From IMG/VR virus record IMGVR_UViG_3300042325_000241, positions 1 to 51,271 of that record: a DNA stretch of 51,271 nucleotides; one strand, given 5' to 3'. This document shows, one piece after another, positions 18,419 to 23,167 of this stretch (its first letter is position 1; every line of letters begins with the position of its first letter). The translations under genes and the position numbers were made by a program. The stretch comes from a virus (lineage: Duplodnaviria > Caudoviricetes). Under the pieces are notes generated by a model. It worked only from the letters and a program-made list of their open reading frames with translations, did not search any database and had not been told where the DNA came from.

Positions 18419-18451
18419 CAAGGGCAGGGGGCATTAAGCCCCCGCTCCTTG
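18419..18451 (-). terminator. GC-rich hairpin overlapping the portal stop codon (weak terminator or mRNA stabiliser)
   Basis: CAAGGGCAGGGGGC-ATTAA-GCCCCCGCTCCTTG; no clear U tract. Confidence 0.4.
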
Positions 18452-19906
18452 TGCCCCATCCATTGGAGGTTGAGCCGTTTCTGCACCTTGTTCAGGCATA
18501 GGCCCAGGTTGTCCCTGTTGGGGCACCCCTGTAGGCTGGCTACCCATTGTGGATGGGTTTAGTGGCATATTTTGTGCTAATATCGCGTGACCGGGTTGTG
18601 GTCGGCTCAAGCCTAGAATAGCCCTAAGTTCATCCTCGTCTAATGTCCCACCCATGTTGTAGAAGGCTTGTGCTGCCTCTAGTGTGTCCTTGGCATTAGG
18701 CTTGTCTATGTCGAACACAAACTTCATCTGGGGCATTCCAGGGAAGTTGTACTTCTGCAACACAGATACTATTTCGTGTGTAATGGTTTCGGCTAGGTTG
18801 TTCGCATCGTAGCGCACCATTCTGGAGTGCGTATCGCCTAGTGTATCTGCCTCACCACTAGTCATGTCATTGTCGTCAGCACCATGTATAAACCGTCTAA
18901 TCTGCTGGTCAAAGTACGCAGTGATTAGGTCGTATAGTAGTTGTGCTCCTGCGGGAGAAGGGTCGATTCTTTCGATCCCTGGACCCGCAGTAGAGTTATC
19001 TCTGTATCTAGGGAATAGGATGGTGTTGTTTCGCATCTGTTCTTCAGCGCACTGTTTAACTTCTGCTAGGGACTGTGGATTCCCAGCTTCGAAGTAGTAC
19101 ACTGTCAAACCACCTGCACCAATGCGCTCAAGGTAGTCCATGAGAAAGGTCAAAACTTGTGACCTTAGATACCACAACCAATAAATTTTACTGCGTATAC
19201 CCACACCATGAATGCCACCAGCTAGCTCACCCTCATAGAAGTCAGCATCTTCTGGTTCATGTTTGTGGATGACTATTTGTTCCCGTTCAGCAGGATCAAA
19301 GAAGTGCGCTCTACCACGATCTGTAATAGCCCAACTACCATCAAAGGTGGCGTGCACTAGGATTCCAGCCTGGCCCGAATACCTGAAGACTAGTTTGTCC
19401 CCGTTCACAGGCTTGAAATCCTTAATCAACATTCTGCGTTTTGCTGTGGAGTAGTCCCACTCGTAGTTTAATTGCACTGCGTACCTGCCATAGAACATGG
19501 CTTCTAGCAGGTGCATAAGCATTTGCTGCCATCTAGGTGTGGCCTTGAGTATGTCGGTTAGTTCTTTAGCAGCTTCTGTTTGTGCAGTGTCTTCTGGATT
19601 GGATGCGTCTAAATGCCATGAGAGTTGTGCAGTAGGCATCTGTCTAGACCTGATGGACTCCATAATTACTGGGTCCCTACGCATGGCTAATGTGTTTTTA
19701 GCACTATGGCGCAGTGCTTCATCAAAGGTGTATCTGTAGGTTCTAGATGCCCAGTTAACCACCTGGCTAAATGTCATAAAGTGTGGTAGAGGTTGTCCAC
19801 CATCACCAGGAACACGACCTTCTTTAATAGGTGCTTCTGGGAAGTCATACCCTTTTTCTTGGGGTATTTGTGCGAACGGGTCTGGGATTACATCCTCTTT
19901 AGCCAT
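18434..19906 (-). CDS. Portal protein (Mu gp29/DUF935-like)
   Basis: MRRDPVI..SI..R, LLEAMFYG...Y.W; C-terminal LDEDELRAILGL.RP; likely start ATG 19906. Confidence 0.85.
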   Translation of the reverse strand: MAKEDVIPDPFAQIPQEKGYDFPEAPIKEGRVPGDGGQPLPHFMTFSQVVNWASRTYRYTFDEALRHSAKNTLAMRRDPVIMESIRSRQMPTAQLSWHLDASNPEDTAQTEAAKELTDILKATPRWQQMLMHLLEAMFYGRYAVQLNYEWDYSTAKRRMLIKDFKPVNGDKLVFRYSGQAGILVHATFDGSWAITDRGRAHFFDPAEREQIVIHKHEPEDADFYEGELAGGIHGVGIRSKIYWLWYLRSQVLTFLMDYLERIGAGGLTVYYFEAGNPQSLAEVKQCAEEQMRNNTILFPRYRDNSTAGPGIERIDPSPAGAQLLYDLITAYFDQQIRRFIHGADDNDMTSGEADTLGDTHSRMVRYDANNLAETITHEIVSVLQKYNFPGMPQMKFVFDIDKPNAKDTLEAAQAFYNMGGTLDEDELRAILGLSRPQPGHAILAQNMPLNPSTMGSQPTGVPQQGQPGPMPEQGAETAQPPMDGAQGAGA

Positions 19907-19983
19907 AATGTGAACCCCCACCTTTTAAGTAGGGGTTATCTCTAGGTATACCTAAACCGGAAGGGTACAATAACCACCTATTA

Positions 19984-20060: not shown

Positions 20061-20092
20061 GTATATCCTCTTTGCCTTTTATAGGGATATAC

Positions 20093-20995
20093 ATGAAGTA
20101 TTTATCAGTTTGCAGTGGGATTGAAGCAGCAACCTGCGCTTGGGAAAACCTAGGGTGGCAACCCGCTGGTTTTTCCGAGATAGAACCGTTCCCATGTGCA
20201 GTTTTAAAACACCACTACCCAACAGTAACTAACTACGGAGATATCAATGAGCACGCAAAATGGGATTTACCACCAATCGACCTTTTGGTCGGAGGCACAC
20301 CTTGCCAATCTTTCTCCATCGCAGGACTTAGAAAAGGACTCGAAGACCCTAGAGGTAACATCATGCTTACCTACCTTAGAATCCTTGAAAGTAGAAGGCC
20401 TAAGTGGACTATCTGGGAAAATGTCCCCGGTGTGTTGTCCTCTAACGGAGGAAGAGATTTTTCTACCTTTATCACATCGTTGGGGAACATGGGGTATGGG
20501 TGGGCGTACAGAGTGTTGGACGCTCAATGGTTCGGACTGGCCCAACGCCGTAAGCGTGTGTTTGTTGTCGGATGTCTTGGAGACAGAACAAGTGCATCAA
20601 AGGTATTATTTGAGTCCCAAAGCGTGCAAAGGAATCCTGCGCCGAGCAGATACACGGGGAAAACAACTACCAGAGATATTAAAGAGTGCACTACAGTATG
20701 GCGCGCTGGGGATAACACTAATTCTGAAACTTGTATCAACCATGCTGGAACTCTAAATTGCAACAAAGGGCAGCGTGGGGGAATAGTTGCTATGCAATCA
20801 ACAGCAGTGCGCCGATTAACCCCTACTGAGTGTGAACGACTACAAGGTTTCCCTGACGGTTACACAGCTATTGCATGGCGTAAGAAGCTAACTGCTGATT
20901 GTCCAGATGGGCCTAGATATAAAGCCTTAGGTAACTCAATGGCTGTTCCTGTTATGAAGTGGATTGGTGAAAGAATCAACAACCTAAAGGACTAA
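20093..20995 (+). CDS. DNA cytosine-5 methyltransferase
   Basis: Motifs I (SVCSGIEA), IV (GGTPCQSFS), VI (WENVPG), VIII (QRRKRVF), IX (RRLTPTECERLQGFP), X (YKALGNS). Confidence 0.95.
   Translation: MKYLSVCSGIEAATCAWENLGWQPAGFSEIEPFPCAVLKHHYPTVTNYGDINEHAKWDLPPIDLLVGGTPCQSFSIAGLRKGLEDPRGNIMLTYLRILESRRPKWTIWENVPGVLSSNGGRDFSTFITSLGNMGYGWAYRVLDAQWFGLAQRRKRVFVVGCLGDRTSASKVLFESQSVQRNPAPSRYTGKTTTRDIKECTTVWRAGDNTNSETCINHAGTLNCNKGQRGGIVAMQSTAVRRLTPTECERLQGFPDGYTAIAWRKKLTADCPDGPRYKALGNSMAVPVMKWIGERINNLKD
20247..20756 (+). CDS. Overlapping +1-frame ORF inside the MTase, candidate second MTase polypeptide
   Basis: 169 aa; GGAG 6 nt upstream of its ATG; LSDVLE...RYYLSPKACKGILRRA...GKQLP..L..AL. Confidence 0.55.
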   Translation: MSTQNGIYHQSTFWSEAHLANLSPSQDLEKDSKTLEVTSCLPTLESLKVEGLSGLSGKMSPVCCPLTEEEIFLPLSHRWGTWGMGGRTECWTLNGSDWPNAVSVCLLSDVLETEQVHQRYYLSPKACKGILRRADTRGKQLPEILKSALQYGALGITLILKLVSTMLEL

Positions 20996-20996
20996 C

Positions 20997-21140
20997 ATGG
21001 ACGATAAGCTAATGGAAGTCCTAGAACGCATTGAAACTGCGTTCAGGACTTCTAAACCATTTATACAACTACAAGATGCACTAGTGCTGTACAAATATAT
21101 ACTAGATCTACATGCAAATAGCAGAAAACCAAATAAGTAG
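20997..21140 (+). CDS. Small hypothetical protein (47 aa)
   Basis: Manual translation MDDKLMEVLERIETAF...; RBS AAGGA; follows the MTase stop. Confidence 0.55.
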   Translation: MDDKLMEVLERIETAFRTSKPFIQLQDALVLYKYILDLHANSRKPNK

Positions 21141-21525
21141 GCTTGCCAATTTTTCCAATTTTTATAAGATGGAAATAAGTAGATGGGTCTAATTTTAATT
21201 TTTGTAAATTCTAGGTACCCCCCTTCGGTTCCCCCCTAGTCAGTTTTCGTCACTTTTCGTCACATTTCGCCGTACTCGTATATTAATACTAGATCTATCT
21301 CTAATAGGATAGTAAATAAAATAATAGTCTACTTAGCAGGGTGCTAATAGATGTATTTACATATAAATAATTAAAGATAAAGTTAGGTGCAATATAGCTA
21401 CAAATAATAATAAATATATTACACCTAAGTTAGTCTCTAATGTGCGGGGATATCACCAAACACCTATAAACATAGGCTTTGGTGCATAATAATATATATA
21501 AAGACTAGTTATATCCGCAATTGCA

Positions 21526-23097
21526 TCACCCGAATATCTTGCGCACTGGTACAGATTGTTTTAAGTCCAGGCCAAACATGCCATTAAAATTAGTTTTACG
21601 AATTGAGTAGTCTACAAGCTCTGTCTTAATTAGCTCAGTTGGCTTCACCCATATTGGAGATATACTTTGTCCGGCTAATGTTACCAAGCACATTCCCATT
21701 GACACCGTGCGATCATCATGCAGCAGATATGTATGATCAAACCTATATGCACTCCCGCTTGTCTTAATTATGAGGGCAGCCAATTCATCTGGTAAACATT
21801 CACGCTTTTTGCCAACAACTAGAGGCGCAGGATTCTGATACCAGGCTAACAATCTATTCACTAATAATGATCGTAATAGCTCTGCCATCTCATAGTTTTT
21901 TTTACCTGATCTACCATCAAATCTTTCAACCCTAGATCTATTTTCAAACTTCTGGACGGTGCCCTCCATCTGCCATGGGTCGACAACTATTAGTGGGTTA
22001 TTGTAGTTGTTTATTACTGATTCTAACCAGTCTTCAACACTTGCTATACTTACAGGTCGATCAGGTGTACCCTGGATAATGTCCATTCTGTCAAGCACAT
22101 AAATACCGTCAGCATTGCGATGCATTACAGACATAACTGTACGGTCTTTTCGAGCACCATAATCAACACTGGCTACATACTCTATGCCATGCAGACCGGA
22201 TGTCGTGTATTGCAGGTTTAGTTCTTGCCCCAGTGTTGAACCGATTGCAATATCACTCCTAGTGAGATATCCTGATTCTTCTGAAGGATCAATCCACACA
22301 TTATCTATTACACGCCTAGCAACACCATTGGGTAGCAGTGCACGATCTCTTTGAATGGCTTCTTGATCCATCCAGCTAGTGAGTTGACCGGGTGCTTCAT
22401 ATACCGTCCATGTAGGATCTTCTTTAACTGTTTCTATGATCTCATGTTGCCAGCTTCCCAATGTACCTGCATTTGTAATCACAACAAATACTGCTCCAGG
22501 GCGTTTCTGTCTACCACTCCAAAGCGTGTCCCACAGATCGCGTTTTTTCCAATGTGTTACCTCATCGCAAACGACTAGATCACACCTAAGCCCAAAGCTT
22601 GTTGCACTGTCCGCAGTTAATATTTTTAAGATTCCACCAGGGCCTTTTATGCGCTTTGCACCATAGGTAATTCTTTTAGCTAGCCATGGATTTAGTCGAG
22701 CTTCTGCGCTCATTGATTCTACCAGCAGCGCAGCTTGATCGAAATCCGCTGCTGCTGCTACAATTTCTACAGGTTTGCGTGAGAAGGCTAGAACCCAATT
22801 ACACAATCTTGCAAGCCCAGTTGTTTTATCATGTCCCCTAGGCAGGGTTTCCCATGTGTTGCGTGGCCCATGATATTCAGGCCTTAAACCGCATAAAGCT
22901 TCTATTGGCGGTGTCATGTAGTCTAAGCGTTTCCATTGCCATGCATGTGCGATGTCTTTGAACCGTCTAGGTTCAGGGCGTGAATCTATTACCACAGAAT
23001 CTAAATAACCCTTGATTGATCGTGCACTTGCAACCTCTGCGATTGCATGTGCATTAGCCAGGCGTTGAATCATTTCTTTTCTTTTATCTACCTGCAT
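21526..23097 (-). CDS. terL: Terminase large subunit
   Basis: Walker A LPRGHDKTT, Walker B LVVCDEV, motif III ITNAG, RNase H-like SVDYG...D, VDPWQ, HDD; start is ATG 23097 or TTG 23109. Confidence 0.92.
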   Translation of the reverse strand: MQVDKRKEMIQRLANAHAIAEVASARSIKGYLDSVVIDSRPEPRRFKDIAHAWQWKRLDYMTPPIEALCGLRPEYHGPRNTWETLPRGHDKTTGLARLCNWVLAFSRKPVEIVAAAADFDQAALLVESMSAEARLNPWLAKRITYGAKRIKGPGGILKILTADSATSFGLRCDLVVCDEVTHWKKRDLWDTLWSGRQKRPGAVFVVITNAGTLGSWQHEIIETVKEDPTWTVYEAPGQLTSWMDQEAIQRDRALLPNGVARRVIDNVWIDPSEESGYLTRSDIAIGSTLGQELNLQYTTSGLHGIEYVASVDYGARKDRTVMSVMHRNADGIYVLDRMDIIQGTPDRPVSIASVEDWLESVINNYNNPLIVVDPWQMEGTVQKFENRSRVERFDGRSGKKNYEMAELLRSLLVNRLLAWYQNPAPLVVGKKRECLPDELAALIIKTSGSAYRFDHTYLLHDDRTVSMGMCLVTLAGQSISPIWVKPTELIKTELVDYSIRKTNFNGMFGLDLKQSVPVRKIFG

Positions 23098-23167
23098 TGT
23101 GTGACCCAATAAATTATGCTACATTGTTTCAGTGTTGATAACTGTAACTAGTAACGGAGTGCGAAAC

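Follow-up and report, generated by a model that had tools for sequence, protein, structure and literature searches.

A conserved +1 reading frame nested within a phage C5 DNA methyltransferase gene, and its product as a putative methyltransferase subunit

The virus record IMGVR_UViG_3300042325_000241 (Duplodnaviria; Caudoviricetes) is 51,271 bp in length and is rated 100% complete; it represents a complete 51-kb phage genome. The whole of this stretch, termed here the window, carries an orphan C5 DNA cytosine methyltransferase gene, alpha, at positions 20093-20995 of the plus strand (300 amino acids). Wholly inside alpha, in its +1 frame and on the same strand, is a second open reading frame (ORF) of 169 codons plus a stop at 20247-20756, termed beta. 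An earlier note on this DNA had pointed to the nested frame, and the ORF listing bears it out. Beta is almost certainly a genuine gene. Its product is probably a small subunit that docks on the alpha protein and helps to form the DNA-recognition domain.

In the ORF listing the alpha frame is open over 20072-20995, and the ATG at 20093 is the likely start. The protein matches PF00145 (E 4.7e-59, 200.9 bits against a curated cut-off of 22), TIGR00675 (E 3.8e-59, 201 bits, cut-off 100.65) and phrog_116 (E 1.7e-94). Frame 0 holds PCQ (IV), ENV (VI), QRRKR (VIII), RRLTP..FPD (IX) and GNS (X), all in one frame; these we take to be the family-defining motifs, with motif numbers that we assigned from the consensus. 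The motif columns are invariant or nearly so among 40 relatives. Motif VIII spans residues 151-155 (20543-20557), of which R152, R153 and R155 are invariant. Motif IX (RRLTPTECERLQGFPD), located by translation and alignment, lies in frame 0 at residues 240-255 (20810-20857), and motif X (GNSMAVPV) at 20930-20953, with invariant columns 280-287. An AlphaFold2 model of alpha alone has a predicted local distance difference test (pLDDT) score of 78.9 and is confident except in the recognition region, residues 188-229, where pLDDT is <50. The top match of this model in the Protein Data Bank (PDB) by Foldseek is M.HhaI (2uz4_A, E 5.3e-16, template modelling score 0.64). The recognition region is very short, as the earlier note had remarked of the variable region of the main frame: alpha has 300 amino acids, compared with 272-514 among relatives and 414 in the nearest one, L005.

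The ATG of beta is preceded at a distance of 6 nt by GGAG, a Shine-Dalgarno-like site at 20237-20240, just as previously noted, and the peptide quoted earlier from about 20481-20696 is an exact translation. Four parts can be distinguished in the protein. Residues 1-75 (20247-20471) lie over alpha motifs IV-VI and are weakly conserved; the synonymous-site entropy of alpha drops there only a little (1.33, compared with 1.54). Residues 76-105 (20472-20561) surround an invariant W79 and a near-invariant M84 and are predicted, from conservation and a model of the complex, to form a strand that pairs with the alpha motif VII strand. Residues 106-150 (20562-20696) constitute a conserved basic core with the sequences LSDVLE, YYLS, GILRRA, RGKQLP and SAL and with two helices, as seen in alignment A1, pLDDT and isoelectric point (pI). 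The tail, residues 151-169 plus the stop (20697-20756), is hydrophobic (grand average of hydropathy 1.47), phage-specific, and overlies the start of the alpha variable region.

The signals for initiation are conserved. In all 42 relatives that can be anchored on W79 there is a start codon 71-79 codons before this residue (21 ATG, 21 TTG), and in 38 of the 42 a Shine-Dalgarno-like site, mostly AGGAG, lies 4-11 nt before the aligned start; the window has ATG and GGAG. The ATG of Met84 (20496-20498) could, to judge from the conservation of this residue, serve as an internal start. G83 and M84 are conserved in at least 90% of 48 sequences, and the third position of the alpha Tyr135 codon has an entropy of 0.25, since beta Met84 requires this codon to be TAT.

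Nine beta columns are invariant in alignment A1 (window numbering): W79, L107, L111, L122, S123, A126, G129, R133 and L149. Eight of the nine lie in the core, and a further 20 beta columns are at least 90% conserved. When beta is folded alone from 48 sequences, residues 1-56 have pLDDT <50 and are disordered, and residues 121-150 reach pLDDT 94-98, with helices at 124-137 and 143-168. The pI of residues 100-150 is 9.2.

The open frame was compared with frames obtained by exchanging synonymous codons between sites that encode the same residue, so that the alpha protein and its codon usage are preserved. In the window gene the +1 frame is free of stops over codons 45-219, after five stops in codons 0-44 and before seven in codons 220-298. 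After shuffling, 6.42 stops are expected in the nested ORF, and it is stop-free in 1 of 5000 shuffles. The 175-codon open stretch is matched by none of 500 shuffles, for which the mean +1 open stretch is 69.8 codons. The N-terminal part of beta upstream of the core is equally free of stops in 12 of 5000 shuffles. Among distinct relatives, the observed open length was reached by at most 5 of 500 shuffles in 49 of 67. The earlier note had named frequent stops in homologues as evidence that would count against a nested gene; the +1 frame is open in 84 of 84 loci, with open stretches of 145-200 codons in the 81 loci that match the motifs strictly and of 160-165 codons in the other three.

Entropy by codon position of the alpha frame was determined for 47 non-redundant relatives (<80% identical). 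Upstream of the nested ORF (alpha residues 1-50) the values for positions 1, 2 and 3 are 0.69, 0.49 and 1.54, and downstream of it (residues 235-300) they are 0.74, 0.50 and 1.51; in both flanks the pattern is the one typical of a coding frame. Within the nested ORF the third-position entropy of alpha declines steadily, from 1.33 over residues 52-120 (the nested N-terminal part) and 0.98 over residues 121-156 (the middle part) to 0.64 over residues 157-200. This last stretch (nt 20561-20692) is where selection switches frame: its first and second positions have entropies of 1.15 and 0.68, and the most variable position is thus position 1 of alpha, i.e. the wobble position of the +1 frame. At the amino acid level the entropy over the same residues is 1.62 for alpha versus 1.07 for beta. 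A few columns are fixed in both frames, for example alpha VLFE over beta YYLS. Such a codon-position pattern is the mark of a second protein-coding frame under purifying selection; over nt 20561-20692 it is the +1 frame that is constrained, and alpha is for the most part a passenger. A chance ORF was rejected on the two grounds of the single stop-free shuffle in 5000 and an entropy that favours the +1 frame.

The nested frame is widely distributed. By tblastn, the +1 peptide finds 182 phage records (best match 64% identity over 72 residues, E 4e-23), compared with 60 weaker ones for the alpha-frame translation of the same DNA (45% identity, E 4e-8); this is the comparison of both frames proposed in the earlier note. 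The 50-residue core finds 137 phage records and 531 plasmid records, the latter mostly P1-like. In nine of nine annotated phages that were inspected the peptide is +1 of motif VIII: Roseobacter phage CRP-821, Vibrio phage 1.046.O, Mycobacterium phages Lucky2013 and Schatzie, Streptococcus phage Javan105, P1 (dmt), Akkermansia phage Chantilly, Burkholderia phage Bcep22 and Faecalibacterium phage FP_Toutatis. Database protein clusters of near-equal length that match beta number 52, with E down to 1.1e-64, and a beta profile searched among 1.84 billion entries retrieves 6017 cluster representatives at E<=1e-3, with 4601 of them at E<=1e-10 and 793 at E<=1e-30. The nested ORF is kept in genes of 38% to 64% GC and in phages whose hosts belong to several phyla.

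Beta also matches phrog_16143 (E 2.6e-9), and the window ORF is one more member of a family of +1 nested genes that comprises phrog_16143 and thousands of 'hypothetical proteins'. In P1 dmt and the other phages the +1 ORF has the same frame, position, core motifs and length as beta; the window differs from other members of the family in its shorter alpha (300 amino acids) and longer hydrophobic beta tail. The nested gene is overlooked by routine annotation, and is unannotated in P1 dmt for example, yet it is often called by gene callers. A literature search of limited coverage turned up no account of a nested gene across the C5 methyltransferases of phages.

In the layout seen in the window, the beta frame is +1 of motif VIII and stops before motif IX, motif IX is in the alpha frame, and alpha is uninterrupted. 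The core is +1 of motif VIII in 182 of 182 classifiable distinct loci, of which 175 have the window layout; in none of the 182 is the core in the same frame as motif VIII. A first set (the window, L004-L083, L092-L171 and seven annotated loci) contributes 122 distinct loci with the window layout, and 21 that were unmatched by the patterns; a second set (L172-L251) contributes 53, with 8 unclassified and 13 duplicates. These counts do not sustain one suggestion of the earlier note, that the LSDVLE...YYLS element resembles a segment that follows motif VIII in-frame in many single-chain enzymes, and a comparison of the beta profile with Dcm of E. coli K-12, described below, also fails to bear it out. 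Five loci at first suspected to be fused (L092, L097, L100, L102 and L115) proved on reading of the sequence to have the window layout.

Departures from this layout are few. In the first set only L003 differs, with motif IX in the +1 frame and with stops. In the second set, L211 and L243 are fused, three loci have stops in both frames, with motif IX in the +1 one, and one has a stop in the alpha frame. In the two fused loci, read by eye (L211:1141-2877 and L243:1141-2973), the alpha frame ends about 40 residues past the overlap, and the +1 frame is stop-free from the core through the recognition region to motifs IX-X, with a gene overlap of about 100 codons. This makes a two-gene enzyme, and without translation of the +1 frame there would be no enzyme in these phages.

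Fused proteins were also found in the databases. A word-based search had given no longer proteins with the core, a negative result voided by a later profile search that found proteins of 302-344 amino acids. Among the 150 best profile matches, five are fused (P0092, P0128, P0133, P0170 and P0200; 302-344 amino acids), and in these the beta N-terminal part and core lead into the recognition region and motifs IX-X. PF00145 matches the C-terminal parts of all five, with E from 1.3e-8 to 2e-11. P0128 is found on 33 contigs and P0170 on 19, and the fused forms are therefore not one-off errors; no relatives of P0128 were found in viral contigs. The module of recognition region plus motifs IX-X can thus hang on either chain, on alpha as in the window or on beta as in L211 and L243, and this is what two chains acting as a single complex would lead one to expect. 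A gain or loss of a single base where the core ends would presumably turn one layout into the other.

A border at this position is also seen between close relatives. Window positions 20093-20700 and positions 1332-1940 of L005 are about 93% identical in DNA, and nearly 100% identical over columns 225-500. The identity ends abruptly at the end of the core, beyond which the two are unrelated and differ in length (alpha of 300 versus 414 amino acids). This divergence marks the border of a conserved module and an exchangeable recognition module.

Several other arrangements were observed. In L003 (Mycobacterium phage Lucky2013, 1089-2289), and likewise in L172, L190 and L214, motifs IX-X are in the +1 frame with stops before them after the core; here the enzyme would consist of three pieces or be in decay. 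A short tandem amino acid repeat at the start of the recognition region accompanies the frame change in L172. In L087 (Mycobacterium phage Schatzie, 321-1844) an HNH endonuclease gene at 821-1438 lies just past motif VIII and interrupts both frames. It is annotated as an intron of undetermined boundaries, and the nested core downstream of it is still +1 of the alpha frame. In L089 (Faecalibacterium phage FP_Toutatis, 1078-2489) the annotation splits the methyltransferase into two genes; the first has motifs IV-VI in frame with the nested core, and the second frame has motif X followed by a motif I-like stretch; judged by motif order, this suggests a permuted or wrapped gene. Three database proteins (P0044, P0050 and P0051) pass from the alpha frame, in which they begin, into the beta frame, at three different junctions, and are either real indel variants or assembly errors.

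The earlier note also proposed structure prediction of both products. A complex of alpha with beta residues 70-155 was modelled with alignments that we built and with three controls, and it has an interaction prediction score from aligned errors (ipSAE) of 0.79 (runs 0.78, 0.80 and 0.79) versus 0.00 for the best control. The mark applied to this score is reached by 58 of 80 solved complexes and by 2 of 110 mismatched pairs, counts that are rough where alignments are built by the authors. The runs share at least 89% of contacts, and the partner has a pLDDT of at least 79. Contacts of lowest expected error are those of beta 81-86 with alpha 136-141, the motif VII strand; beta 97-122 contacts alpha 141-150 and 236-250, which includes motif IX. 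The model supports a binding of beta to alpha.

A mechanism can be proposed in which the orphan C5 methyltransferase gene is dual-coded. Frame 0 would give alpha with motifs I-X and a recognition region that folds poorly alone. Beta, of 169 amino acids, would have a start of its own at the GGAG-preceded ATG at 20247 and perhaps further ones inside the frame, Met84 for example. Its first ∼75 residues would be a disordered by-product of overwriting alpha motifs IV-VI, and its last ∼75 conserved residues would form a strand plus a basic two-helix unit. Beta would then dock on the edge strand of the alpha catalytic domain (motif VII) and against motif IX, where it would complete or stabilise the small DNA-recognition domain, and the active enzyme would be the alpha-beta pair. 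Of the earlier suggestion of a nested second subunit, the nested gene itself stands, given the selection, stop avoidance, start and Shine-Dalgarno site, and presence in distant phages; the subunit part is a deduction supported by the complex model and the fused relatives.

M.EcoHK31I of E. coli HK31, which recognizes YGGCCR, is reportedly an alpha/beta C5 methyltransferase, said to have been described by Lee, Kam and Shaw in 1995. In the published accounts, its beta is encoded in another frame inside the alpha gene and both chains are needed for activity (PMC2836561); the N-terminal 42-67 residues of beta are removable to a degree, and Met codons further inside can act as start sites (PMC2836561). 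Motif IX is on the beta chain, and alpha has motifs I-VIII as well as X, plus the recognition domain (PMC2836561, PMC3404938). So described, its likeness to the window is in gene layout, a small chain encoded wholly inside the large-chain gene in another frame, and the dispensable N-terminus fits the disordered first ∼56-75 residues of the window beta. The parallel drawn in the earlier note therefore holds for layout and fails for motif content: by description, motif IX is on the small chain of M.EcoHK31I and on the large chain of the window. In addition, the conserved part of the window beta directly follows motif VIII, matches no known motif and has no PF00145 match, and M.EcoHK31I is part of a restriction-modification system, whereas the window gene is a phage orphan between portal and terminase genes. 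With its motif IX in alpha, the window gene is not filed here as M.EcoHK31I-type, as that enzyme is described.

Two further comparisons can be made. M.AquI (CYCGRG) is a two-polypeptide C5 methyltransferase whose split falls in the variable region, after motif VIII and before motif IX (PMC3404938). So described, it resembles L211 and L243, in which motifs I-VIII are split from the rest of the variable region and motifs IX-X. It differs from the window, where alpha is complete (I-X), the small chain is a ∼75-residue core plus an overwritten N-terminal part, and the second chain starts ∼100 codons into the first gene, not near its end. In viral overprinted genes, a second protein is encoded in another frame of an older gene, and the overlapping part is disordered and compositionally odd (PMC8227390). 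The window beta is likewise in another frame of an older gene, with a disordered overlapping part. It differs from the overprinted genes portrayed there in that the overlap, ∼500 nt, is kept across phages of several bacterial phyla and in that beta appears, from the prediction, to bind the protein of the overlapped frame.

A number of points weigh against beta as a selected gene and a working subunit. The Shine-Dalgarno-like site and some conserved beta residues lie within codons of conserved alpha residues, so that their conservation is partly a by-product. The shuffle test is not significant in GC-rich relatives (L088, 286/500; L086, 78/500; L043, 107/500); the 18 exceptions of 67 are mostly genes of high GC content, in which a long open frame comes cheaply. 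Beta tails vary in length and sequence among relatives, and the 19-residue hydrophobic tail of the window is absent from them; it is no more than the window's own recognition region read in the +1 frame. Beta matches nothing significantly in Pfam and NCBIfam, PDB sequence searches with the protein and its profile give chance-level matches only, and the beta profile, set against Dcm of E. coli K-12 with hhalign, has a probability of 0.17%, no likeness. The role assigned to beta in the fold is therefore that of the model, and the complex score is the model's own confidence with alignments of our making. Alpha carries all ten motifs in one frame and might be active alone. That beta is translated, binds alpha and is needed for methylation is what we infer.

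This raises the question of whether the nested ORF is real and conserved and yet its product is no catalytic partner, but binds alpha or DNA to regulate, inhibit or time the methyltransferase, or has an unrelated phage function. The presence of motifs I-X in one frame of alpha would fit such a role, as would a beta unlike any known methyltransferase segment and a core that is basic (pI 9.2) and helical, like many small DNA-binding regulators; a protein atlas places beta in unnamed viral clusters only. It is nevertheless unlikely, for the chain of L211, L243, P0128 and P0170 runs into the recognition domain and motifs IX-X and so provides a physical link between core and enzyme, beta is predicted to contact motifs VII and IX of alpha, and the beta of M.EcoHK31I is, as described, an activity subunit.

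A frameshift product, the other possibility offered in the earlier note, is not favoured. Here a programmed +1 shift of the ribosome, or else slippage in transcription, would lead into the core just past motif VIII, with no separate beta; the product would be motifs I-VIII plus the beta core in the window, and a full single-chain enzyme in genes such as L211. The core does start directly after motif VIII in the DNA, a +1 shift there would give a complete single chain in L211 and L243, and P0044, P0050 and P0051 do pass from the alpha to the beta frame. However, the +1 frame is already stop-free for ∼105 codons upstream of the core (12/5000 shuffles as good) and a start with a Shine-Dalgarno site is conserved 71-79 codons before W79; a frameshift needs neither, and the conservation of both counts against it. 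The three proteins just named join at three different places, and the shifted product of the window would end at 20756 without motifs IX-X. These features make a frameshift very improbable. Two compensating programmed frameshifts that would join the core into a single chain in the window were considered and rejected.

The weakest alternative, that the open frame is a by-product of the amino acid and codon composition of a conserved enzyme and has no useful product, can draw on the fairly long +1 open stretches of shuffled window genes (mean 69.8 codons) and on GC-rich relatives in which the observed length is ordinary, but it is scarcely credible given that the constraint over nt 20561-20692 is on the +1 frame and not on alpha, that one shuffle in 5000 is stop-free, and that the ORF is kept across 38% to 64% GC and hosts of several phyla.

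The methyltransferase gene sits between the portal gene (18434-19921; phrog_113, E 1.1e-21) and the large terminase gene (21526-23109; phrog_9, E 4.5e-28), both on the opposite, minus strand. A 47-codon ORF on the plus strand, 20997-21140, begins 1 nt past the stop of the methyltransferase gene; Pfam gives nothing significant for it (best E 0.24), and PHROGs gives no match. Between this operon and the terminase gene is an AT-rich gap of 385 nt (21141-21525) with C-runs at 21220-21236 and, at about 21244-21269, two copies and a partial third copy of the short tandem repeat TTTTCGTCAC. The gap could be a packaging or replication site. A promoter/terminator scan was uninformative, with 7 promoter-like sites versus 4.4 +/- 2.4 expected.

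To return to beta as a docked subunit, a wider proposal is offered tentatively, as one that may or may not hold: many 'orphan' C5 methyltransferases of phages and prophages, including Dmt of P1, would be obligate two-chain enzymes in which the second chain is overprinted in the +1 frame and the module of recognition region plus motifs IX-X has been moved between chains by single-base indels at the end of the core. If this two-chain reading is true, phages would have in it an easy means of switching the enzyme or wiring it anew. Should beta be a functional subunit, the current description is wrong for thousands of methyltransferases that are annotated and expressed as single genes, among them the Dmt of P1, itself a laboratory model, and cloning in recoded (codon-optimised) form would silently remove the partner. 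The prediction of methylomes, work on anti-restriction in phages and efforts to design split methyltransferases would all gain. Among long overlaps of genes on the same strand, the nested genes would then also rank with the most widespread known from bacterial viruses, with a product that binds the protein of the gene that it overlaps.

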